Part shown: positions 22,634-55,922 of the stretch, in pieces
How the letters are laid out: every line of letters begins with the position of its first letter
How positions within the stretch are numbered: position 1 is the first letter of the stretch
Position numbers and translations under genes: made by a program
DNA from: a phage
Strand: one strand, 5' to 3'
Sequence record: PX880099.1
DNA length: 64,000 nucleotides
The notes under the pieces: generated by a model
Databases searched by the model: none
What the model was told of the DNA's origin: nothing
The model's input: the letters and a program-made list of their open reading frames with translations, nothing else

Positions 22634-23449
22634 TTATTTGTTTAAGTGGTCTTCGACCATTTTAATGAAACCTTCATTGCTGAAGGCTGTTGCAGCTTTT
22701 TCTCGGTAAACAAAAACTCCACGATCTTCATAGAGAAGTGTTTCTTCGTAATTAACTCCAGGGTTAACTACAACCATTTTTGTACCCATACTAAGCGCAG
22801 GGAATAATTCCCAATTAAAATTGATAACTTGGTTTGAACATCCTACTACTACAACCAAATCTTGCATGGTCAAAGTATCGAACAAGTGAGCCATATCTGC
22901 ATACAAAGGTGCAGCCTCACCAAAAAATACAACATTAGGCTTCACCCAGTTATAATCATCTATGTTTATACTATTGTAACCAATATCTACCAGTGTTTTG
23001 TAATCTCCAGGATGCATACGGTAAACTACTTCAGGAAGATATCCGTGCACGTGAATAACAGAATCTCTGTCTACACCTGCTCGCTCTAATAGATCATCAA
23101 CGTTTGTCGTCAAGTTTACTACTTGGTTAGGATATTCCTTAAACCACTTTGCTATTTGAATATGTGCAGCATTAGGTTGTACATCTTTAAGCTCAACACG
23201 TCTTTTGTTATAAAATTCGTGTGTTTTGGCATACAAATCCATACCGTTCTCGTCTACACCACCGACCACTGGAAGATCTGGAGATGTTCTAACACGATAA
23301 CCTGCTTGGAAAGCTCCAATATCGCAGACCTCTTCTAAATCATATTCTTCCCATAAGGCACGACCACTATCGGTGTCTGTTCGGAATGTTCTAATCCCAC
23401 TATCTGCACTTAAACCTGCACCGCTTACAAAAATCACTCGTCTTGGCAT
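22634..23449 (-). CDS. Sir2-family (sirtuin-like) protein
   Basis: VIFVSGAGLSADSGIRTFR (GAG..SGI.TFR), TTNVDDLLERAG (TQN.D.LHERAG-like), VIHVHG; no internal Zn-ribbon cysteines seen. Confidence 0.65.
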   Translation of the reverse strand: MPRRVIFVSGAGLSADSGIRTFRTDTDSGRALWEEYDLEEVCDIGAFQAGYRVRTSPDLPVVGGVDENGMDLYAKTHEFYNKRRVELKDVQPNAAHIQIAKWFKEYPNQVVNLTTNVDDLLERAGVDRDSVIHVHGYLPEVVYRMHPGDYKTLVDIGYNSINIDDYNWVKPNVVFFGEAAPLYADMAHLFDTLTMQDLVVVVGCSNQVINFNWELFPALSMGTKMVVVNPGVNYEETLLYEDRGVFVYREKAATAFSNEGFIKMVEDHLNK

Positions 23450-24637: not shown

Positions 24638-25320
24638 TATTTCTCCTTATCTAGAAGATTATTAGACAAAAACACTGCACGGGCAAAACCACGTGCTGTT
24701 AGTGATCTAAGTTGTTTTGTTTTTGCACTAGCTCCACCTAAGCTTTTCCAACCCCAGAAGCAGCCTATATGATCTACTGGTTTCTTCACTGGTTGAACAA
24801 AACCATTGCCGTGCCAAATACAAGTTTTCTTTGTATACCCATCACGGGTAGGCATTTTAGGATGAAAGCTTCCTTCCTCTTCAAACAAATACCCACCATA
24901 CTCATAAGGATCAAAGTAAAAATCGGGTTTACGCCATAAGGTTGAAAGTTTACCTACTGGGTTCTCAATCATCCAAGGAACATTATATTTGTTACCCAAA
25001 GCTTCCACTACACGAATATTAGCTAAAGCTTCATCTAATTCCTCTGTGCTACGTTCGTGTTTGCTACCACTACCTGCTAACATAGTGCAAGGTGGAAATC
25101 CAAAAATAATATCGGGTTTAGGTATCCCATAATCTTCAGGGTTGAATGTAGAATCTATCCAGGCATTCACATAGGTTATGTTTGGGTGCTCCATCCTAAC
25201 CTCGTATTTACCGTGATCCCCTTCATCAGCGTTTACACAAAAACACTTGTGACCTGCTTCGGCATAACGTAACACCATGATCCCAGATCCGTCAAACATA
25301 GACAAAACTGTTTTACTCAT
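24637..25320 (-). CDS. C5-cytosine methyltransferase-like protein (short, about 228 aa)
   Basis: Motif I-like LSMFDGSG, motif IV-like FGFPPC, motif VI-like ENPVG; start moved to ATG 25320 (SD GGAGG). Confidence 0.45.
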   Translation of the reverse strand: MSKTVLSMFDGSGIMVLRYAEAGHKCFCVNADEGDHGKYEVRMEHPNITYVNAWIDSTFNPEDYGIPKPDIIFGFPPCTMLAGSGSKHERSTEELDEALANIRVVEALGNKYNVPWMIENPVGKLSTLWRKPDFYFDPYEYGGYLFEEEGSFHPKMPTRDGYTKKTCIWHGNGFVQPVKKPVDHIGCFWGWKSLGGASAKTKQLRSLTARGFARAVFLSNNLLDKEK

Positions 25321-26741: not shown

Positions 26742-27014
26742 CTAACACATTGAGGAAGAAGAGATCCAAACACCTCTTGTGGTTAAACCATTTTCATCCA
26801 ACTCTACACCATAATCTTCACAAATGAAATCAATATAGTGATCTGCGGCTGGCGTTCCTGTAGGGTAATAAGTTTCTCCGTTACCGTAGTCACCTATCCA
26901 AGCTTGTTCCTGGAACTGTTCACAAAGTTCTTCAATTTCCTTACGAAACTTTCTTTGTGCTTGTTCCATCTCTTTAACTTTCTTTTTTATCAGCAGTTCG
27001 CCTTCAGATTCCAC
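26742..27014 (-). CDS. small protein with C-terminal W-x-SSSS-x-C tail (family C, member 1)
   Basis: C-terminus TRGVWISSSSMC. Confidence 0.5.
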   Translation of the reverse strand: MESEGELLIKKKVKEMEQAQRKFRKEIEELCEQFQEQAWIGDYGNGETYYPTGTPAADHYIDFICEDYGVELDENGLTTRGVWISSSSMC

Positions 27015-27023
27015 AATCTCTCC

Positions 27024-27284
27024 TTAACAGCTACTACTGTGCCAAACGCCTTGAGAATTAACGACGAAACCATCATCACCTTCACCATAACAAGAAGAGG
27101 ATTGCCAATCTTCAAAACAGATTGCGTCATTTTCTAAACTAAGACCAAAACCAGCATCTTCAGCTTCTTTTGTAAGTTCGTCCACTAAAGCCATAATAGC
27201 TTGGGCTTTTTCAGTTAATTCTTCAACATTACGATCACTCATTAGTATTTCTCCTCCGGTTGGAAAACTGAACGACAAGCCCAC
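27024..27284 (-). CDS. small protein with C-terminal WHSSSC tail (family C, member 2)
   Basis: C-terminus SQGVWHSSSC plus internal EDWQSSSCYGEGDDGF. Confidence 0.5.
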   Translation of the reverse strand: MGLSFSFPTGGEILMSDRNVEELTEKAQAIMALVDELTKEAEDAGFGLSLENDAICFEDWQSSSCYGEGDDGFVVNSQGVWHSSSC

Positions 27285-27556
27285 ATACTAGCTTCTTTTA
27301 AATGTTTAATAGCACAACGGATTTGATCAATACGTTCGTATGCAAGATCTAATTCTTTTTCTGTGCCGTCAAAAGACCCATGATATGCTTCACAATACTC
27401 TTCCTCTAAAGCTTTGAAGATTAAACCTAAACGCTCTTCTGCATCTTTAATAGCGTTAACCTTGCCAATCTTATCGTCAGTATGCGCCTTATAACCTTTG
27501 ATATCTTCGATTCCCACTTTACCTCCTATTAACAACTTAAAGAAGATGGATGCCAA
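27242..27556 (-). CDS. hypothetical protein (104 aa)
   Basis: ORF. Confidence 0.45.
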   Translation of the reverse strand: MASIFFKLLIGGKVGIEDIKGYKAHTDDKIGKVNAIKDAEERLGLIFKALEEEYCEAYHGSFDGTEKELDLAYERIDQIRCAIKHLKEASMWACRSVFQPEEKY

Positions 27557-27726
27557 TTTGTTCCAGTATTCTCATTTTCATCTTCTGGATCATAATAACC
27601 ACCCATCCCATATTCAGGGGAGAAACGGAAACCTTTACCAGTCTCATCTGCTAACTGCTCTGCTTCCGCTAAAGCCTCATAAGCTGCTTTTACGGCTTCT
27701 TCTACTGTTTTAAACTTGGTCGTCAT
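27529..27726 (-). CDS. small protein with C-terminal WHPSSLSC tail (family C, member 3)
   Basis: C-terminus TGTNWHPSSLSC. Confidence 0.5.
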   Translation of the reverse strand: MTTKFKTVEEAVKAAYEALAEAEQLADETGKGFRFSPEYGMGGYYDPEDENENTGTNWHPSSLSC

Positions 27727-28000
27727 AAAATTTCTCCTCTCCTAAAGACATGTTGACATGAAATGCACGATATGTAAATTCGTTGTCCGTTGTGTTTGAA
27801 TAAAACTCAAATTGAACAACACCGTCTTGAGAAGACAGATACATGCCAATTTGAACTGTTCCTTCTGGTACCAGGTAAGCATACTCTGGACGTAGTGTTA
27901 CATTGTAAAAATAAAGTTCCCCAACACCCATTTCATCCCAAGCTTCCCAAGCGGTAACGAAGTTACTTTCAAAACTTGTTACTGATCCGAACTCTGCCAT
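27710..28000 (-). CDS. hypothetical protein (96 aa)
   Basis: ORF. Confidence 0.5.
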   Translation of the reverse strand: MAEFGSVTSFESNFVTAWEAWDEMGVGELYFYNVTLRPEYAYLVPEGTVQIGMYLSSQDGVVQFEFYSNTTDNEFTYRAFHVNMSLGEEKFYDDQV

Positions 28001-28491
28001 AAAACCTCCTCAATCTTGTAGTTTGACTCCATCTCCAACACATTTCCACGAACGTCTCTCCGAAGAAAGGCATAAGCTTTATTAGGTATTGTAGACTCAT
28101 ATTTAACCATATCTGGCACAGCAAAAGATACTACTACTCCTGCTGGGCTTCTGTCAAGAGCCTTATTAATATTTCTAAGGATATCGTTAGCCAAGATTTC
28201 TGCCAATTCTCCAAGAACAGTTTCGGTTATATCTTTATATCCCATTAAGTATTTGTTGATATCTTTCATCTCTGTATTGTTCAGAGTATAGTCCAAAGGA
28301 TAGAAATTCAAAGCGGAGTCACTTTTATGTGTCCACATGAAATGCACCCGATCCGAGCAGAATCGTAACCCTCTGTGAAGAATATCTTCTACAACAGGGA
28401 GAATTTCTTTTGTCACATCATTAACCATGTTGTAATCTAAGATTTCTGCCAAGTTTGTTCTTTGTTCACCACGTTTACGTTTAGGAATCAC
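27979..28491 (-). CDS. hypothetical protein (170 aa)
   Basis: ORF. Confidence 0.5.
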   Translation of the reverse strand: MIPKRKRGEQRTNLAEILDYNMVNDVTKEILPVVEDILHRGLRFCSDRVHFMWTHKSDSALNFYPLDYTLNNTEMKDINKYLMGYKDITETVLGELAEILANDILRNINKALDRSPAGVVVSFAVPDMVKYESTIPNKAYAFLRRDVRGNVLEMESNYKIEEVLWQSSDQ

Positions 28492-29062
28492 TTGTTATTG
28501 CCCTCATTACCAAAGGTCGTAGAAAATCGTAAATCTCTTGTTTTGTTTTCCCACGAATGTTTAAACAAGGAACATTATTGGCTTTAGCTATCTTCCAAGC
28601 CGTAGCTGTTCCACCTTTTGCATCTCCATGTTTATCAGTATTAGCACAAGCCAACAAGAAACATGATGGAGCAGGATTCTCCAAATCTCTACCTAACACT
28701 TGATGCACATTACGTTGGTGCAATTTTCTAGCACCCTGCTTAAGCTTTTCATAGGCTGGGTGAACATCTTTGATCCATTGCACAGAGATAGCATAGTTCA
28801 TTGTATCTGGTTTTGCAAGAACAATAACATCCCCTGGAATCTGATTACCTTTGAAATTTTCCCAAGGAACATAAATCTCCTTGTTAGTAGGATTTTCAGA
28901 CTCTTGGACACCTGTTTCAAAAGCAGAATCACTACCCTCTGCCTTCCCAGACCTTAATTTAAACCCAAGGTTTGAAAGCCATTTCCCTATGCCTACCATC
29001 AAAGCCCACTCTTCTTCGGATATGTCTCTACTTCCAACTCCCGTATAGAACAGTTCTGCCAT
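28481..29062 (-). CDS. DprA/Smf-like (SLOG-type Rossmann fold) protein
   Basis: FYTGVGSRD ... RSGKAEGSDSAFETG resembles the GxR ... SGGAxGxDxxA pattern; start at ATG 29062 (SD GAGGTG). Confidence 0.4.
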   Translation of the reverse strand: MAELFYTGVGSRDISEEEWALMVGIGKWLSNLGFKLRSGKAEGSDSAFETGVQESENPTNKEIYVPWENFKGNQIPGDVIVLAKPDTMNYAISVQWIKDVHPAYEKLKQGARKLHQRNVHQVLGRDLENPAPSCFLLACANTDKHGDAKGGTATAWKIAKANNVPCLNIRGKTKQEIYDFLRPLVMRAITSDS

Positions 29063-29069
29063 AATCACC

Positions 29070-29378
29070 TCAACAAGTAATTTCAAAAGGTGTATAGGGT
29101 TCCGTATTTCTCATGATCCAAGGACTGCTAGGATTGCTCGGATCATAAGGACCGAAAGGTTTTATGGTAGGTTGTGTTTCTTTCTTCTGAATCTCTTCAA
29201 AAATACGACGAAGTTCAGAATATTCTTGATCCACCATAAGATTCGGTGCATCTGATTCTACAGCTTGCAGGTTATTTTCCTTAAAAACAACCTCACGAAC
29301 AAGATTAACATCCTCTGTTTCTAAGATAACTTCTTTACGGATATTACCTACACTTTGAATAATTGTAATCTTATACAT
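29070..29378 (-). CDS. hypothetical protein (102 aa)
   Basis: ORF. Confidence 0.5.
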   Translation of the reverse strand: MYKITIIQSVGNIRKEVILETEDVNLVREVVFKENNLQAVESDAPNLMVDQEYSELRRIFEEIQKKETQPTIKPFGPYDPSNPSSPWIMRNTEPYTPFEITC

Positions 29379-30121
29379 TAATCCTCCTCAAGAGTTGAAT
29401 AAAATTGAAGACCACCGTCCATATCGAAATAAGCAAATGTTAAGTTATTATTGAACACAGATCCAGTATCCATATAAACACGATTCGCATTGATAATAGG
29501 TGTTTTTACATAAGAGTGTCCATGAAACACATAATCCACACCCATCACAACAGGAAGTTTCATTCCCTCTTTAGCACAGTCTACCATGTCTCTGTCCCAC
29601 ATAAGTGCTTCAGCAAAACGGTTTTCCTGTGTTTTTGTCATCTTCAAAATGTATTCTGGAATATCTGTTACAGGGAGATATTCCAAAGAAGATGGATACC
29701 CACCATGAATAAACGCAAGTTTCATGCCTCTGTAGTTAACAATGAGAACAACAGGTAAATCTTCTGTCATCATTGCTAAGGCTGTAGCTCCTTCTTCACC
29801 ACATTCTTCAAGGACCGTATATCCTCCATTTTGATACCAACACTCGAAGTAGCTACGATCTCCTTCCAGCATACCTTTAATCATCATATCTTCATGATTT
29901 CCACGAACAGCGTAGCGATTGTGTTTACGAGTAAATTCTAAAACACAACGAAAGTTTTGCTTTCCACGGTCAGTAAGATCTCCTAAAGATACAACTACAT
30001 CTGTATCTCGGATACCTAACTTTGCCTTTCCTTTTTCATACAAATTATAACAACCGTGTAGATCTCCAATTATAAAAAGATCTTGATCGCTTTTAACAGT
30101 AATTTCTCTGTGTATGATCAC
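29378..30121 (-). CDS. Ser/Thr protein phosphatase (calcineurin-like metallophosphoesterase)
   Basis: GDLHG, GDLTDRG, GNHE motifs. Confidence 0.85.
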   Translation of the reverse strand: MIIHREITVKSDQDLFIIGDLHGCYNLYEKGKAKLGIRDTDVVVSLGDLTDRGKQNFRCVLEFTRKHNRYAVRGNHEDMMIKGMLEGDRSYFECWYQNGGYTVLEECGEEGATALAMMTEDLPVVLIVNYRGMKLAFIHGGYPSSLEYLPVTDIPEYILKMTKTQENRFAEALMWDRDMVDCAKEGMKLPVVMGVDYVFHGHSYVKTPIINANRVYMDTGSVFNNNLTFAYFDMDGGLQFYSTLEED

Positions 30122-30457: not shown

Positions 30458-31048
30458 TCAAATTATTAACGAAACCGCATGACTAAATCTTGGTTCAGAT
30501 ATAACCTCTGCTACAGTCACATATGTATCGTGCAGCCAAAAAGATTCTACTCTACAAACACAAATACCGTTGATAATGAAATCTACACAGGATTTATTAT
30601 TTTCGCACACCTGTTGACTATAAACAACCCCTAAAGAGTCATAAAGTGATCTCACTGTTGCTATCATTTCATCTGTTTCGTCTTCCTGTGAAACAAAGAA
30701 AACGAATACAGACAAGTTATTAGCGAAAGTATTGCTATTCTCTACTTCAACCGACTTACAAGGTAAAAAGGAGTAATATTTACCGCTAGGTATCAATTTC
30801 GCCTCAACCTGGTTAAGTATGCTTTGAGATGGTTTTGTTACATAAAAAAGATTTTCTGTTGGGTTTTCAACATTACTCCTTACTATGCAACGAGTGGGGT
30901 TCGAAGGATCAAAAACATGATCGAAATCGACACACACAGGTAAGTTAACAACTTTAAACTTTTTGCTAAGAATGCTTACTGCTGTAAAAATCAAACCAGC
31001 ATTTATTTTGCCAGTGAAAGTTGAACGCATAACTACTCCTCGGATCAT
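30458..31048 (-). CDS. hypothetical protein (196 aa)
   Basis: ORF. Confidence 0.5.
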   Translation of the reverse strand: MIRGVVMRSTFTGKINAGLIFTAVSILSKKFKVVNLPVCVDFDHVFDPSNPTRCIVRSNVENPTENLFYVTKPSQSILNQVEAKLIPSGKYYSFLPCKSVEVENSNTFANNLSVFVFFVSQEDETDEMIATVRSLYDSLGVVYSQQVCENNKSCVDFIINGICVCRVESFWLHDTYVTVAEVISEPRFSHAVSLII

Positions 31049-31736: not shown

Positions 31737-32246
31737 TTAAACAAAATAAAATGGTTGAGAGAGGCCCAAACGATTCTTTGGGTCGTATACATACCAAGCG
31801 TATGCTGTCTTATCTGTTCCACCTGCAACAAACGAAGGCCGTTCTGAAAGGACTATAAGGTTCGTTGGTGGATTCTTTTGATGGAACTCTCGTCGTTTCT
31901 TTGACTCCAAGAAGCCCAACCGAAGAAGATAAATACAAACATCCGCCTCTTTTAAGCTCTTTTCCAAGAACTCCATTGCTAACTTGAATGGAGGATTTGT
32001 GATTATAATGTCGGGACGATTTTCCCATTCATGACTAAAATAATCTTTACCTTCTTCAAGTTCACAATATTCTGAACCTTCAGGAAAATGGCGATAAATC
32101 GCTTCAGCTTCACCTCTACAAGGTTCTGCAAAAACCCAACCTTCTTCCTTTAGATTTTTGAAATCTATAACACTAAACAAACTATTGATTGCTTTTTGCG
32201 GTGTCGGATAATAATCGCTCGTTGGGCGATCATAATCTAATGCCAT
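31737..32246 (-). CDS. putative DNA methyltransferase (NPPF motif, N6A/N4C class)
   Basis: DIIITNPPF (motif IV-like). Confidence 0.4.
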   Translation of the reverse strand: MALDYDRPTSDYYPTPQKAINSLFSVIDFKNLKEEGWVFAEPCRGEAEAIYRHFPEGSEYCELEEGKDYFSHEWENRPDIIITNPPFKLAMEFLEKSLKEADVCIYLLRLGFLESKKRREFHQKNPPTNLIVLSERPSFVAGGTDKTAYAWYVYDPKNRLGLSQPFYFV

Positions 32247-49396: not shown

Positions 49397-50275
49397 TTAT
49401 TTAAGGATTGTTGCTTTGGTTAAATCTTCCATCAGACCTCGAATCTCATTGAAGCACAGAAGGACTGAAGCTTCAATACTACCTTCTTCGTCTGCAAAAT
49501 ATTTCGGAAAACGTAGTTTAGAAAGTTTAAACTCTTTATCCACTACAAAATCTACAACACCGTCATATTCAAGACCGATTGCAACCACATCTTTACCATC
49601 TTCTTTTAGTTCGACAGCTTTAGACTCGTATAGGGATTCTTTACTCCAAACAACAACGCCCTCGCTATCCTCCATTTTGATATAATTTCCGAGAGTAATA
49701 CGATCTGCTTCGTGATTCTCCAGCAATTCACCAAAACCTTTTACAATAGCTTCTTCGTGCACACTAAAACCTACCGAAGGGAAAGTCCCCAGAACGGAAC
49801 GGAGGAAAGAAGTAATCTCTTCTGCAACCTTTTTACTTCCATTAAGAACATAAAGAAGATTCGTAGTTTTATCCAAGACAACATAGTTAAAGAAATCTTC
49901 AGGTTCTGTTTCAGGCAATAGTGCAAATTCAATATCTTCCTTCATTGCTTTGACTACTTCTTTATCAACATAAAACTCTTTACCTTCGCTCTCCATGTCC
50001 TGACGCATTTCTTCTAGACGTTCATTCAGAATACGTTTAACTTTCTTTTTATCTACCTTCTTCACAGATTGACCTACATTAAGCAGTTCAAGATCTGAAA
50101 ACTCTTTTACAAATTTAGAGTCATCTTCGAAACGAACAAGACCGATAGTGTGTGACTGGGAGCCTTCTGCTGTTACAAACTCCAGAGGAATATCTGTAAT
50201 GCTGTTAAGGGATGCTACAGAAGCATTGTCACCAACAACCATAGGCAGAGCGGATTTAAAAGATTTTACAAACAT
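49397..50275 (-). CDS. RdgC-like recombination-associated protein
   Basis: Central segment KEVVKAMKEDIEFALLPE...LLYVLNGSKKVAEEITSFLRSVLGTFPSVGF aligns by eye with E. coli RdgC; about 300 aa. Confidence 0.5.
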   Translation of the reverse strand: MFVKSFKSALPMVVGDNASVASLNSITDIPLEFVTAEGSQSHTIGLVRFEDDSKFVKEFSDLELLNVGQSVKKVDKKKVKRILNERLEEMRQDMESEGKEFYVDKEVVKAMKEDIEFALLPETEPEDFFNYVVLDKTTNLLYVLNGSKKVAEEITSFLRSVLGTFPSVGFSVHEEAIVKGFGELLENHEADRITLGNYIKMEDSEGVVVWSKESLYESKAVELKEDGKDVVAIGLEYDGVVDFVVDKEFKLSKLRFPKYFADEEGSIEASVLLCFNEIRGLMEDLTKATILK

Positions 50276-53319: not shown

Positions 53320-53724
53320 TTATTGAAGTTTAAGTGAACCACGAAGACGTTTCTCTTGCTGATCACGGATATATTGTGGAACATCGTGAATTGAATCATT
53401 ACCGTGCCTATTTTCAACAACTAAAGAGATAACTTGATAACCAAACTCTTCAGCAAGAGCTAGATAAGGTTTAAGTTCTTTCTCTGTGGTTGAAGTATTA
53501 GAAACAATAATCTTGTTAAGATTAGATGCCATAGCATCACGAACAATACCCTGACACCATGCGTGTGCTTTACCTACATTTTCTGGCTTCCAGTCGTAAA
53601 CACCACTTTCTGTGTAATGATATTGATCTGCCTCACAGATAGGCCAATAACCTTCAGAAATAATTTCTGCTACTGTAGATTTACCAGCACCTGAAACGCC
53701 ACGTAAAATGATAAGTTGTTTCAT
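53320..53724 (-). CDS. P-loop kinase (polynucleotide/nucleotide kinase-like)
   Basis: Walker A ILRGVSGAGKST; 134 aa; abuts RNA ligase gene. Confidence 0.55.
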   Translation of the reverse strand: MKQLIILRGVSGAGKSTVAEIISEGYWPICEADQYHYTESGVYDWKPENVGKAHAWCQGIVRDAMASNLNKIIVSNTSTTEKELKPYLALAEEFGYQVISLVVENRHGNDSIHDVPQYIRDQQEKRLRGSLKLQ

Positions 53725-54657
53725 TTATCCTCCAAAAAAGTTTTCGATTTTTTCACGTCGCTCTTGCTGATTTAAAGCAGCCCATTGAGTCTTCGTAAAA
53801 TTATTTCGAATCCATTCTAACAAAGCGTAATATTCTTCGTCAACCATTTGTTTGGCATTTTTTGGATTATCCCAAATCAGATCCCACTTTTTATCTCCAC
53901 CGCGCATAAGAAACTTCTTAGTAAGATAGTGTGGTGATTTAATTTTTAAAAGTAAGTTGAACGGATAGTTTGTTTCACGAACTACAAACCCTTCGTGTTT
54001 ACAATGTTTAGACATTTCAACAACATCTGAAAACTTAACCATTGGATGAACTTCAGGACGCTTAAATTTGGTGACAGAAGCAATTCCATCAAGAGCACCT
54101 TCAGGTAACATAAAACTTGTCCCATCAGGATTTTGAATTCTGGCACCAATTAAGTATGCACCTGGTTCTTCTTCGACAATATGCGGATCAGAAGGATCAC
54201 AGATTTCAAAAAGAAAAGTTGCTTTTGCACTCTCTGTCCATTTAATGAAATGTTCTATGTCATCACACTCTGAAACAATATGATTCTTTGCAATACTTGC
54301 AAAATCTGATTCAAGGCTTCCTGTTGTCGATACAATAAGTTGACCTTTATATACACCTACAGAGGCCATAAAACCATTTACTTTACGAACCACATCTACA
54401 AGTTCATCCGCTGGTAGATCTGTGCCATTCTCAAAACGATTAAAAATCTTAGTGAAAGGCCAAATAACAACATTGTCATCAGCATCAACAACAATTCCGC
54501 GACATTCTAGAAGACGAGAATCAATGCTCCATAAGTTATCCCAGAAAACTTTGTTCTTATACTTAAGAACAGATAGACCAGAATACTCTCCTTCTCTATA
54601 TGTTTTCTTATGAACTAAACCTTTTTCAACCAAATCGTCGCAATTAAATTTAGCCAC
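53725..54657 (-). CDS. RNA ligase, T4 Rnl1-like
   Basis: LLECRGIVV (T4 Rnl1 LECRGIMF), motif I RKVNGFM, motif IV EGFVVR, motif V LLKIKSPHY. Confidence 0.6.
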   Translation of the reverse strand: MAKFNCDDLVEKGLVHKKTYREGEYSGLSVLKYKNKVFWDNLWSIDSRLLECRGIVVDADDNVVIWPFTKIFNRFENGTDLPADELVDVVRKVNGFMASVGVYKGQLIVSTTGSLESDFASIAKNHIVSECDDIEHFIKWTESAKATFLFEICDPSDPHIVEEEPGAYLIGARIQNPDGTSFMLPEGALDGIASVTKFKRPEVHPMVKFSDVVEMSKHCKHEGFVVRETNYPFNLLLKIKSPHYLTKKFLMRGGDKKWDLIWDNPKNAKQMVDEEYYALLEWIRNNFTKTQWAALNQQERREKIENFFGG

Positions 54658-54658
54658 A

Positions 54659-55210
54659 TTACTCTCCTTTGATTATTTTGTGATGGTCTACAGTCACGAT
54701 ATCTCGTTTACTCATCATAGAAATTATCTCATCAAAATGCAAGATTTTTCCGTGTGCATCCCAACCCACATCTAACATTTTACCATAAGCTTCATCAGGG
54801 AAAGATCCGTGGGAATGCCCGTGTAGCATGATTGATCCACGACCTTGTTTATTCCAGGAGGCCATAGGGTAATGGCTTAAGACGAAGAACAGCTTCTGAT
54901 ATTTCACTTCGTCATAATACACCACTTCTCCATACTCTGCAAGCACTTCTCGGTGTTTGCTGTAGTCATGGTTCCCAACACAGTAGGTGATATCTCCTTG
55001 GAGACGGGAAGCAATTTTACGGGTATCTTCTTCTGTCCCAAAACAGAAATCGCCTAAATGCCACATCTTGACACCAGGACTCGTAGCACATTTATTCCAT
55101 GCTTCGATCAGTGCTTCTGTCATGTGGTCCATATCCTCCCACGGTCGATATTCAGGAGCAAACTCTCGTATACGTTTGTGCATAAAATGCAAATCACTTG
55201 TAATAAACAT
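54659..55210 (-). CDS. calcineurin-like metallophosphoesterase
   Basis: SDLHFMH, LGDFCFG, VGNHD, LHGHSH. Confidence 0.7.
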   Translation of the reverse strand: MFITSDLHFMHKRIREFAPEYRPWEDMDHMTEALIEAWNKCATSPGVKMWHLGDFCFGTEEDTRKIASRLQGDITYCVGNHDYSKHREVLAEYGEVVYYDEVKYQKLFFVLSHYPMASWNKQGRGSIMLHGHSHGSFPDEAYGKMLDVGWDAHGKILHFDEIISMMSKRDIVTVDHHKIIKGE

Positions 55211-55566
55211 TAGTATAATCCCTCGCTAAATAGGTCACGATCATGACCATTACGTTCGTAGTCAATCTGGTCTGCGTGTTTTGCAATGATGTATGCATCT
55301 TCACGACTCCACCAATTGTAATACTGATCAATAAAACCTTGATTGTTTGGAAGACAGTGTATTTTATCAAGCACACCTGCTTCTTTCAATACATTCAATT
55401 GTGCAGATAATACAGGATTTGCATGTCGAACACAAGGAATAATTAACTCTTCACCATTATTCAAAATATACTTATTCGCAGCACAAACAATAACACGTTG
55501 CGCATAATGTCCCTCACCGATCCAAGTGAGAGGTTGGTAACAAATGTTCTGACCAATACTGCTCAT
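55210..55566 (-). CDS. hypothetical protein (118 aa)
   Basis: ATGA-coupled to phosphoesterase. Confidence 0.5.
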   Translation of the reverse strand: MSSIGQNICYQPLTWIGEGHYAQRVIVCAANKYILNNGEELIIPCVRHANPVLSAQLNVLKEAGVLDKIHCLPNNQGFIDQYYNWWSREDAYIIAKHADQIDYERNGHDRDLFSEGLY

Positions 55567-55577
55567 TAAGTTTCTCC

Positions 55578-55922
55578 TTAATAGTGAACACGCTTCATTT
55601 GAATACCATAACGCAGCATGGATTCTTTTGCAAGCATGAATTTATCCCCAGCGGCGGGATTAGAAGTATGCACGAAAATGGTAGGTGAACCAAAACAAGG
55701 TTTACCAAACGCCAGAAGTTCTTCCAGGTGCAGGAAAACATCATACCCATCTTGGTCTGACTCCATACCTAAATCATTGTCAAAAGACCACTCGGTTACT
55801 CTTCGATACAGTTTAGCAGGATCATTGAGAAAGGCCATAGCTTCTTGTGACGTTTTAAACCAAATTGCATCTTCCTGTCCATAGTCGGCTGGGTTCCGCA
55901 TATCATCTATCCAAACTTTCAT
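55578..55922 (-). CDS. hypothetical protein (114 aa), receiver-like N-terminus
   Basis: MKVWIDDMRNP...WSFDNDLG pattern; family not confidently recognised. Confidence 0.45.
   Translation of the reverse strand: MKVWIDDMRNPADYGQEDAIWFKTSQEAMAFLNDPAKLYRRVTEWSFDNDLGMESDQDGYDVFLHLEELLAFGKPCFGSPTIFVHTSNPAAGDKFMLAKESMLRYGIQMKRVHY

Follow-up and report, generated by a model that had tools for sequence, protein, structure and literature searches.

The window analysed here is the whole 64,000-nucleotide stretch of the phage sequence record PX880099.1, and the gene under study is an open reading frame (ORF) of 193 codons on its minus strand, from an ATG at 29062-29060 to a stop codon ending at 28481, whose product is predicted to be a DprA-like protein of SLOG fold. 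The window is from a phage of the genus Phapecoctavirus (Stephanstirmvirinae), which are E. coli myoviruses of ~150 kb; 4 kb of sequence taken around the gene proved 99.3% identical to several of them. The same 582-nt coding sequence (CDS) is annotated in GenBank records, and the 193-aa product shows 100% identity with gp207 of Escherichia phage nepoznato, labelled 'DprA-like DNA recombination-mediator protein'. A preliminary description of the window, made from the sequence alone, had reported at this place a DprA/Smf-like SLOG protein of a leftward gene block, quoting two of its peptides. Both are found in the product, MAELFYTGVGSRD as residues 1-13 and LRSGKAEGSDSAFETG as residues 36-51, and the gene does belong to a long series of genes that all lie on the minus strand.

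The GAGG ribosome-binding site of the gene shares nucleotides with the TGA stop codon that ends the 102-aa ORF upstream, and the GTG start of the downstream 170-aa ORF, at 28491, is 11 nt ahead of the target-gene stop, within its last codons; therefore, the three genes look translationally coupled (Table 1). On a larger scale, two terminator-like hairpins, the second of which is followed by a TTGACA-type promoter match, may delimit a putative transcription unit of ~6 kb containing a DNA methyltransferase, a metallophosphoesterase, the DprA-like gene and an Acb2/Tad1-type gene.

The family of this protein is large. By tblastn it was found in 1,443 of 50,697 phage records (~3%), with Klebsiella, Pseudomonas, Escherichia, Aeromonas, Vibrio and Acinetobacter as hosts and T4-like, T5-like, N4-like, Pakpunavirus, Felix-O1-like and jumbo phages among the types, and a profile search of 1.84 billion representatives gave 5,985 clusters of 50% identity at E<=1e-3 (2,025 at E<=1e-30), most of which are stand-alone proteins of 170-210 aa. 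Conservation analysis, profile searches and AlphaFold2 modelling were carried out on an alignment of 51 diverse homologues, hereafter A1, in which the two peptides quoted in the preliminary description cover the invariant columns G10, R12, R37, G39, A41, G43, D45, A47 and G51. Because the CDS is annotated in GenBank, has homologues in all of these phage records and clusters, and carries the two peptides on invariant columns, it is a real gene and a chance ORF is excluded.

Table 1. Features of the DprA-like gene and of its surroundings (positions in the 64,000-nt window).
Feature	Positions	Strand	Basis or remark
CDS of single-domain DprA-clade SLOG (Rossmannoid) protein, 193 aa, phrog_768	28481..29062	-	ORF, ribosome-binding site, PHROG, AlphaFold2 model, Foldseek
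GAGG ribosome-binding site, 5 nt 5' of the ATG	29068..29071	-	Read from the sequence
G10-S11-R12, loop after strand 1, cf. DprA 'G-S/T/A-R' (H. pylori DprA R52)	29027..29035	-	Hidden Markov model and hhalign alignments
R37-S-G-K-A-E-G-S-D-S-A-F-E-T-G51, loop/helix after strand 2, cf. DprA 'SGlArGID'	28910..28954	-	Alignment
P66-W67, loop after strand 3, family-specific invariant Trp	28862..28867	-	Conservation and model; function putative
L114-H-Q-R-N-V-H-Q-V-L-G124, helix before strand 4, fits 'F/L/Y-x-x-R-N/D'	28691..28723	-	Pattern, topology
K149-G-G-T-A-T-A155, glycine loop after strand 4, cf. DprA 'SGSLvTA'	28598..28618	-	By-eye comparison with Smf consensus
Upstream 102-aa ORF, phrog_15301 (function unassigned)	29070..29378	-	Putatively coupled to the target gene, by position
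Downstream 170-aa ORF, phrog_8569 (function unassigned)	27979..28491	-	GTG start overlaps the 3' end of the target gene
Calcineurin-like metallophosphoesterase ('NinI-like phosphatase'), two genes upstream of the target	29378..30121	-	Pfam Metallophos, E 4.7e-13
Acb2/Tad1 hairpin-domain ORF, 104 aa, 0.9 kb downstream of the target	27242..27556	-	PF24729, E 2e-16, 60 bits vs cut-off 27
Terminator-like GC-rich hairpins with T-runs	32704-32689 and 26733-26716	-	Pattern match only
DNA methyltransferase genes	31740-32246 and 24640-25320		
ORFs of 90, 86 and 65 aa flanking the Acb2-like gene	26742-27014, 27024-27284 and 27529-27726	-	Shared C-terminal motif
ORF of 196 aa, phrog_4806	30458-31048	-	Publicly called 'histidyl tRNA synthetase'
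Sir2-family gene	22637-23449	-	
RdgC homologue	49400-50275	-	Pfam, E 7.5e-22
RNA ligase, PNK-like ATPase, phosphoesterase and second RNA-ligase-like gene	53323-55916	-	RNA-repair cluster

At sequence level the protein matched the hidden Markov model (HMM) of PHROG 768 over its full length (E 2e-62, 211 bits), its residues 2-182 aligning with positions 2-180 of the 191-position profile. The DprA family of Pfam, PF02481, was matched at E<0.01 by 35 of the 51 homologues (best E 2.6e-7), the matches that were examined all falling in the N-terminal stretch, and among seven homologues checked individually P0120 alone passed its gathering score, with 30.5 bits. When the A1 profile was run against the PDB sequences, the DprA structures 3MAJ (E 0.018) and 3UQZ (E 0.36) were found; the same search with the single protein sequence gave noise only (selenide water dikinase, E 0.94). 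Thus, profile matches of DprA type exist for the protein proposed in the preliminary description, through PHROG 768, through the homologues that match PF02481 and through 3MAJ. No Pfam match to LOG (PF03641) was obtained with the target, and neither the query nor its 51 homologues matched the YpsA/YAcAr families (PF06908, PF10686). Homologues of E. coli Smf have PF17782 and PF25317 in addition to PF02481. SAM and DML1/winged-helix domains are absent, by Pfam and in the model, from the single-domain protein of 193 aa, in which Pfam and the Smf profile alignment also revealed no sequence-level counterpart of the known dimerisation or RecA-contact regions of DprA. It has been reported that H. pylori DprA (HpDprA) is without SAM, accessory domains being not universal in DprA (PMC3950713).

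The AlphaFold2 model computed on A1 had a predicted local distance difference test score (pLDDT) of 95.5 and a predicted template-modelling score (pTM) of 0.91, and displays a beta-alpha-beta-alpha-beta core of the SLOG Rossmannoid type, with strand 3 at residues 61-65, a helix at 109-123, strand 4 at 136-139 and extra helices at residues ~88-108. In the Foldseek comparison with the PDB, HpDprA chains ranked first (E 1.5e-5 to 2.4e-4; template-modelling (TM) score ~0.54, a distant likeness) and ShosA, 8zva, second (E 8.1e-4), followed by weaker matches to the SLOG domain of ThsA (from E 8.6e-4 for 8wc0 to 2.5e-2, also 7uxs; TM ~0.4), the Moco carrier protein (MCP), S. pneumoniae DprA, TM1055/LOG and YpsA (2nx2, E 6.9e-3), with LOG structures appearing only at E>=1.7e-2. 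Nearly all the significant PDB matches were SLOG proteins, namely DprA, ShosA, ThsA, MCP, LOG, YpsA, PpnN and the N-terminal domain of TRPM. In the viral structure library BFVD many phage 'DprA-like' proteins were found at TM 0.7-0.8, and SLOGs of YspA/YAcAr type at ~0.4. The assignment to the SLOG fold, which comes from the predicted structure, is solid, and a place nearest to the DprA clade is supported, the relationship being distant; the DprA/Smf-like identity given in the preliminary description holds, by the PHROG 768 match, the confident model and the order DprA, then ShosA, of the best PDB matches.

The Rossmann domain of DprA (PF02481; 4LJL/4LJR from H. pylori, 3UQZ from S. pneumoniae and 3MAJ from R. 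palustris) is the best structural match of the protein, which is near to it in size and isoelectric point (pI) and presents an L-x-x-R-N pattern and a GG/SGS..TA loop in matching topological order. Unlike DprA, it has the extra helices at ~88-108 and the family-specific residues W67, H101, H115 and Q121, it has no SAM or DML1/winged helix, and its gene is phage-encoded, with no link to competence genes. ShosA, from the ShosTA anti-phage system (PDB 8ZVA), likewise has a SLOG domain of the DprA clade and acts in phage-host conflict but, differently from our protein, it contains SAM as well as an additional helix at its C-terminus and pairs with the PRTase toxin ShosT. No PRTase gene is adjacent to the target gene, whose neighbours are the metallophosphoesterase gene and ORFs of unassigned function.

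Besides the nine columns named above, W67, H115, R117, N118, Q121, G124, S133, G150, G151, T152, T154 and A159 are invariant in A1, and S11 and P66 are conserved in at least 90% of the 51 homologues. In the DprA proteins that bind single-stranded DNA (ssDNA), motif 1, G-S/T/A-R, follows the first core strand (HpDprA G50-R52) and is essential for ssDNA binding, and motif 2, F/L/Y-x-x-R-N/D, lies in helix alpha-6 (HpDprA F140-N144) (Wang et al., PMC3950713). Motif 1 is present in our protein, G10-S11-R12 standing opposite the GSR of DprA in three independent alignments, and the SG.A.G.D stretch aligns with SGLARGID of DprA 3maj/3uqz and of E. coli Smf. The residues L114-N118 fit the pattern of motif 2 and, judged by pattern and topology, could be the equivalent of HpDprA F140-N144. 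Conserved basic residues (R12, R37, R112, K113, R117, K144 and K149) are found around the motifs and the pI is ~7.7, like that of the Smf Rossmann domain; net charge and pI, however, fail to separate ssDNA from small-molecule ligands.

The catalytic motif of LOG enzymes is PGGxGTxxE (PMC3950713); its Glu is missing here, the corresponding stretch being K149-GGTATAW-K157, with Lys at the Glu position. The conserved residues W67, H101, H115, Q121 and E62, which are specific to the family, are located in or after the strand-3 loop, the site of active-site residues in TIR/DrHyd/SLOG domains (PMC9503650). Since they sit where SLOG/TIR enzymes carry such residues, some catalysis by the protein is still conceivable.

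Domain fusions were looked for in those listed members of the family that reach 225 aa or more. NADAR is fused to the DprA-like domain in P0264 and P0343, at the N-terminus, and, among the members listed, also in P0241 and P0242, two metagenomic proteins of 1,488 and 1,475 aa with two to three DprA-like SLOG copies, YAcAr, LDcluster4 (SLOG cluster 4) and a C-terminal NADAR, an architecture like that of the polyvalent counter-defence proteins reported from phages. DUF4326 is fused in P0317 and in gp15 of Pseudomonas phage Zuri, phrog_2072 stands at the C-terminus of P0119 and P0338, and phrog_9995 is the N-terminal domain of P0346/P0351; no identity was found for phrog_9995 or for the extensions of P0350, P0357 and P0276. 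No SAM, winged-helix, recombinase or SSB fusion was present among the listed members of this length. The fused members all keep the invariant motifs of the family, the one exception being P0317, which has Gln in place of H115. As for phrog_2072, it also occurs free-standing, as gp47 of Ruegeria phage vB_RpoP-V12 (locus L011, 3615-4004, plus strand), with the motif VFGSN..G.HGAGAA, and has no Pfam match. Its AlphaFold model (pLDDT 93.3) gave almost only macrodomain matches, with DarG of the T. africanus DarTG first (E 1.7e-3), then TARG1 and M. tuberculosis DarG, so that phrog_2072 is, as far as the model tells, an unrecognised macro family beside or fused to the DprA-like domain. It has been reported that NADAR and DarG macrodomains strip ADP-ribose (ADPr) from guanine and thymine in ssDNA, and that phage NADARs neutralise DarTG1 (PMC11543638, PMC11125620, PMC11825919); we found in the literature no paper linking DprA-type domains with NADAR or DarG.

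For the analysis of gene neighbourhoods, 93 loci were oriented on the target gene and grouped into 46 lineages (60% target identity), and their 5,296 ORFs were clustered. There was no universal neighbour gene in these loci, and the immediate flanking ORFs taken from eight phage lineages had no detectable mutual similarity. PhoH, usually directly upstream, was a neighbour in nine lineages. NAMPT (median ~1.1 kb upstream), a Macro-domain protein (phrog_335, annotated 'phosphatase', ~0.35-0.75 kb upstream in most loci) and class I ribonucleotide reductase (RNR, within 6 kb) were each counted in seven, and PRPP synthetase (PRS), ThyX (both within 6 kb) and a metallophosphoesterase as in the window (mostly within ~0.4 kb upstream) in five. 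The other neighbours were phrog_2072, adjacent to the gene in three lineages, DUF4326 in two and NADAR in one, the last two within 6 kb. Altogether, a Macro, phrog_2072, NADAR or DUF4326 gene was found within 6 kb in 13 of the 46 lineages, often at <=0.5 kb upstream. Acb2-like genes were considered as regular neighbours and rejected, as they occurred in two lineages only.

Among these neighbours, ThyX, PhoH, RNR or a nucleotide kinase adjacent to or overlapping the gene in 15 of the 46 lineages, as in phage O4, where it stands between thymidylate synthase and PhoH, could indicate a LOG-like nucleotide N-glycosidase, or another enzyme of nucleotide metabolism, that reshapes the pool of (deoxy)nucleoside monophosphates for phage DNA synthesis, and LOG, PpnN and YgdH are indeed among the weaker fold matches. 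The lack of a Pfam LOG match, the Lys at the Glu position of PGGxGTxxE, the rank of the LOG-type structures below DprA, ShosA, ThsA and MCP, and fusion partners that are ADPr-related and not nucleotide-biosynthetic make this explanation very improbable.

The name given to nepoznato gp207 reflects a different explanation, in which the protein is a classical recombination mediator that, once bound to phage ssDNA, would promote recombination-dependent replication or repair by loading host RecA or displacing SSB. Iyer et al. (2021) suggested for phage DprA/Smf the role of an extra ssDNA-binding protein in recombination (PMC7824862), and, among characterised proteins, those closest to ours are DprA and the DprA-like antitoxin ShosA, both of which bind ssDNA and RecA, ShosA contacting ssDNA via the equivalent arginines (PMC3950713, PMC12961424). 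The retention of the ssDNA-binding motif 1 of DprA, and putatively of motif 2, agrees with this explanation, and so does the location of the gene, which in our phage is inside a long DNA-metabolism block (ligase, exonucleases, RdgC, RNR and ThyX) and in a T5-like vibriophage is beside ligase/replication genes. On the other hand, the protein has neither SAM nor DML1/winged helix nor the regions for dimerisation and RecA contact mentioned above, and no recombinase, SSB or annealase was met as a fusion or, in the 46 lineages, as a recurrent neighbour. Moreover, family members are present in the early regions of N4-like phages and in T4-like phages, which have their own UvsX/UvsY mediator system, and the nepoznato genome, in which an annotation check found no RecA/UvsX, annealase or SSB, yet encodes RdgC, a RecA antagonist in E. 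coli. A poor interaction with RecA has also been predicted by others for a different phage SLOG, the 'Smf-like' ORF83 of DruSM1. On the whole we regard a recombination mediator as rather unlikely.

DruSM1 ORF83 has been reported to inactivate Avs type III. We rejected it as a precedent for the phrog_768 family, because the family profile had no match in CAjan, a related Seuratvirus, and the only SLOG carried there is a YAcAr-type protein. CAjan gp82 (L005 6867-7259, plus strand), labelled 'GTP-binding domain', is a YAcAr/YspA SLOG (PF10686, E 2e-18) and, by analogy, is the likely counterpart of DruSM1 ORF83. Phage YAcAr/YspA SLOGs (PF10686) are small, stand-alone and annotated 'Smf/DprA-like', as our protein is, but YAcAr is a different SLOG family.

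Closer to the gene, the Acb2-like ORF, labelled hypothetical in GenBank records, has the hairpin domain that is the fold of the phage sponges for CBASS/Thoeris signalling nucleotides, and a second Acb2-type gene is two genes away from the DprA-like gene in locus L017. The three small ORFs flanking the Acb2-like gene in the window have each an acidic helical N-terminus and share a C-terminal motif (GVWISSSSMC, GVWHSSSC and NWHPSSLSC), and they look like tandem paralogues. Two further genes of this region may be mentioned. The 196-aa ORF owes its public name to phrog_4806, and another gene with the same label is present elsewhere in the nepoznato genome; the name is probably wrong, because no synthetase domain was found in the ORF by Pfam. 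The product of the Sir2-family gene is 66% identical to its nepoznato counterpart, most other compared genes being 98-100% identical, which suggests a locally divergent or exchanged allele.

Outside the window, nepoznato gp077 is a Macro-domain protein (23.0 bits vs the Pfam cut-off of 22), 41% identical to the Macro neighbour of the DprA-like gene in Pakpunavirus. A gene for a ComF-like PRTase (gp078; PF15610, E 2e-41) is directly upstream of it (L098 39491-40806 for the pair, plus strand), and the two are near phage TerC and 'tellurite resistance' genes.

The sponge fold encoded 0.9 kb away would also fit the explanation that we rank second, namely a binder, sponge or N-glycosidase for soluble ADPr-derived molecules produced by host immunity such as Thoeris (isomers of cyclic ADPr (cADPR), gcADPR or ADPr-1''P). 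From the viral SLOG fusions with Macro, NADAR and DUF4326 that they reported, Iyer, Burroughs, Anantharaman and Aravind (2022, PMC9503650) predicted that most viral SLOG domains process or sense soluble ADPr derivatives, and the family behaves as those SLOGs do, being mostly stand-alone with sporadic fusions of this kind and neighbours for NAD salvage. The NADAR, Macro, DUF4326 and NAMPT/PRS contexts would fit soluble ligands equally well, as would W67, H101, H115 and E62 at or after the loop that is the catalytic site in SLOG/TIR enzymes, the second Acb2-type gene in L017, and the structural matches to the 3'cADPR-binding ThsA SLOGs (8wc0 and 7uxs). ThsA, the Thoeris effector and sensor of a cADPR isomer, shares the SLOG fold with our protein and binds an ADPr-derived ligand, but it is host-encoded, is fused to SIR2, and gave no sequence-profile match. 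In addition, the ssDNA binders DprA and ShosA surpass the ThsA SLOG in both sequence and fold, and the family is nearest to DprA and not to the YpsA-like type to which most SLOGs of that survey belong, as indicated by the missing YpsA/YAcAr profile match and the low TM of the YspA-type proteins in BFVD. The LOG catalytic Glu is absent, and DNA adducts have since been shown to be substrates of NADAR and of macro partners of the DarG type. We therefore consider a soluble ligand unlikely, yet the most serious of the alternatives.

What we tentatively place first, as a possible rather than a probable explanation, is that the protein binds a nucleotide or ssDNA in its pocket and serves in an ADP-ribose-centred counter-defence, because its closest relatives bind ssDNA and the fusion partners of the family belong to enzyme families that remove ADP-ribose from DNA. 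The ADP-ribose-linked genes within 6 kb in 13 of the 46 lineages, the NAMPT and PRS neighbours, the Macro protein gp077 of nepoznato, the Acb2-like gene in the putative transcription unit, and the lack of recombination domains among the fusions and of an annotated recombinase in nepoznato also speak for it. This stand-alone, single-domain SLOG protein, nearest to the DprA clade, would have no catalytic activity, or a weak one at most, and would hold a nucleotide moiety in a pocket made of GSR, SG.A.G.D, L-H-x-R-N and GGT.TA. The likeliest ligand would be an unpaired base with a phosphate of ssDNA, as in DprA and ShosA. Acting in early or middle infection as a part of the ADP-ribose/NAD-centred counter-defence of the phage, the protein could recognise, target or shield phage ssDNA that has been ADP-ribosylated by host toxins such as DarT-type enzymes. 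Catalysis would then come from Macro, NADAR or phosphoesterase partners, fused in the relatives and separately encoded in this phage. The ORF, its conservation, the SLOG fold with DprA as nearest solved structure, the pocket motifs, the fusion partners and neighbours of the family and the missing accessory domains are results of the analysis; which ligand is bound, that catalysis is lacking and that DNA ADP-ribosylation is involved are inferences.

Several observations weigh against this explanation. At sequence level, PF02481 is the best Pfam match of the target but does not reach the threshold (12.7 bits vs 29.6, E 0.073, residues 9-52 only), so the protein is formally not a member of that family. 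The hhalign comparison with an alignment of enterobacterial Smf gave a probability of 49-60% and could be relied on only over the ~45 N-terminal residues, and a cropped template with relaxed mact did not extend the reliable part; motif 2 is affected too, as hhalign did not place L114-N118 opposite the Smf FPRRN. The structural likeness to HpDprA is itself distant, and the conserved W67, H101, H115, Q121 and E62 could equally fit an enzyme or a small-molecule ligand. The DarG/TARG1-like subclass of phrog_2072 depends on weak E-values, of 1.7e-3 and above. As for the contexts, the neighbourhood counts come with no background rate and are inflated by synteny shared among related phages; ~70% of the lineages have no ADP-ribose-linked neighbour and 15 of the 46 have PhoH, RNR or ThyX instead. 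In the window, locally built profiles found no Macro, NADAR or DUF4326, nor, for that matter, phrog_2072 or phrog_9995. Finally, our literature search found no experiment on phrog_768.

The preliminary description had instead connected the protein with RNA-repair and modification genes nearby. DNA methyltransferase genes are in fact close to it, but the RNA-repair cluster, although on the same strand, is 24-27 kb off. At such a distance, and with no RNA-repair gene recurring beside the family in the 46 lineages, a functional tie to RNA repair was not borne out. The protein may bind nucleotides or processed DNA/RNA ends, as mentioned for phage SLOG proteins in the preliminary description, but the contexts of the family point to ADP-ribose/NAD-linked conflict and to DNA metabolism rather than to RNA repair.

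If the counter-defence role of the window protein is extended to its relatives, phage 'DprA-like' proteins in general might be modules for the recognition of ssDNA or of ADP-ribosylated bases, directed at toxins that ADP-ribosylate DNA (DarT1, DarT2 and related enzymes), and not recombination mediators; they could work alone, as a shield or reader, or together with NADAR, DarG-like macro or DUF4326 partners, to which the domain is fused in some phages. We put this forward as a doubtful generalisation.

The gene, the family and its contexts are already annotated or published and the novelty is low, the gene of the window being in itself an ordinary and correctly recognised member of an annotated family. 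The name 'DNA recombination-mediator', borne by a family that occurs in ~3% of the phage records and in thousands of metagenomic clusters, is however backed by no experiment, and it would be misleading if the ADP-ribose-linked fusions and neighbours reflect the real role. In that case, the family would be a new element in the means by which phages counter DNA ADP-ribosylation or signalling by NAD derivatives, with a bearing on host range and on the choice of therapeutic phages.

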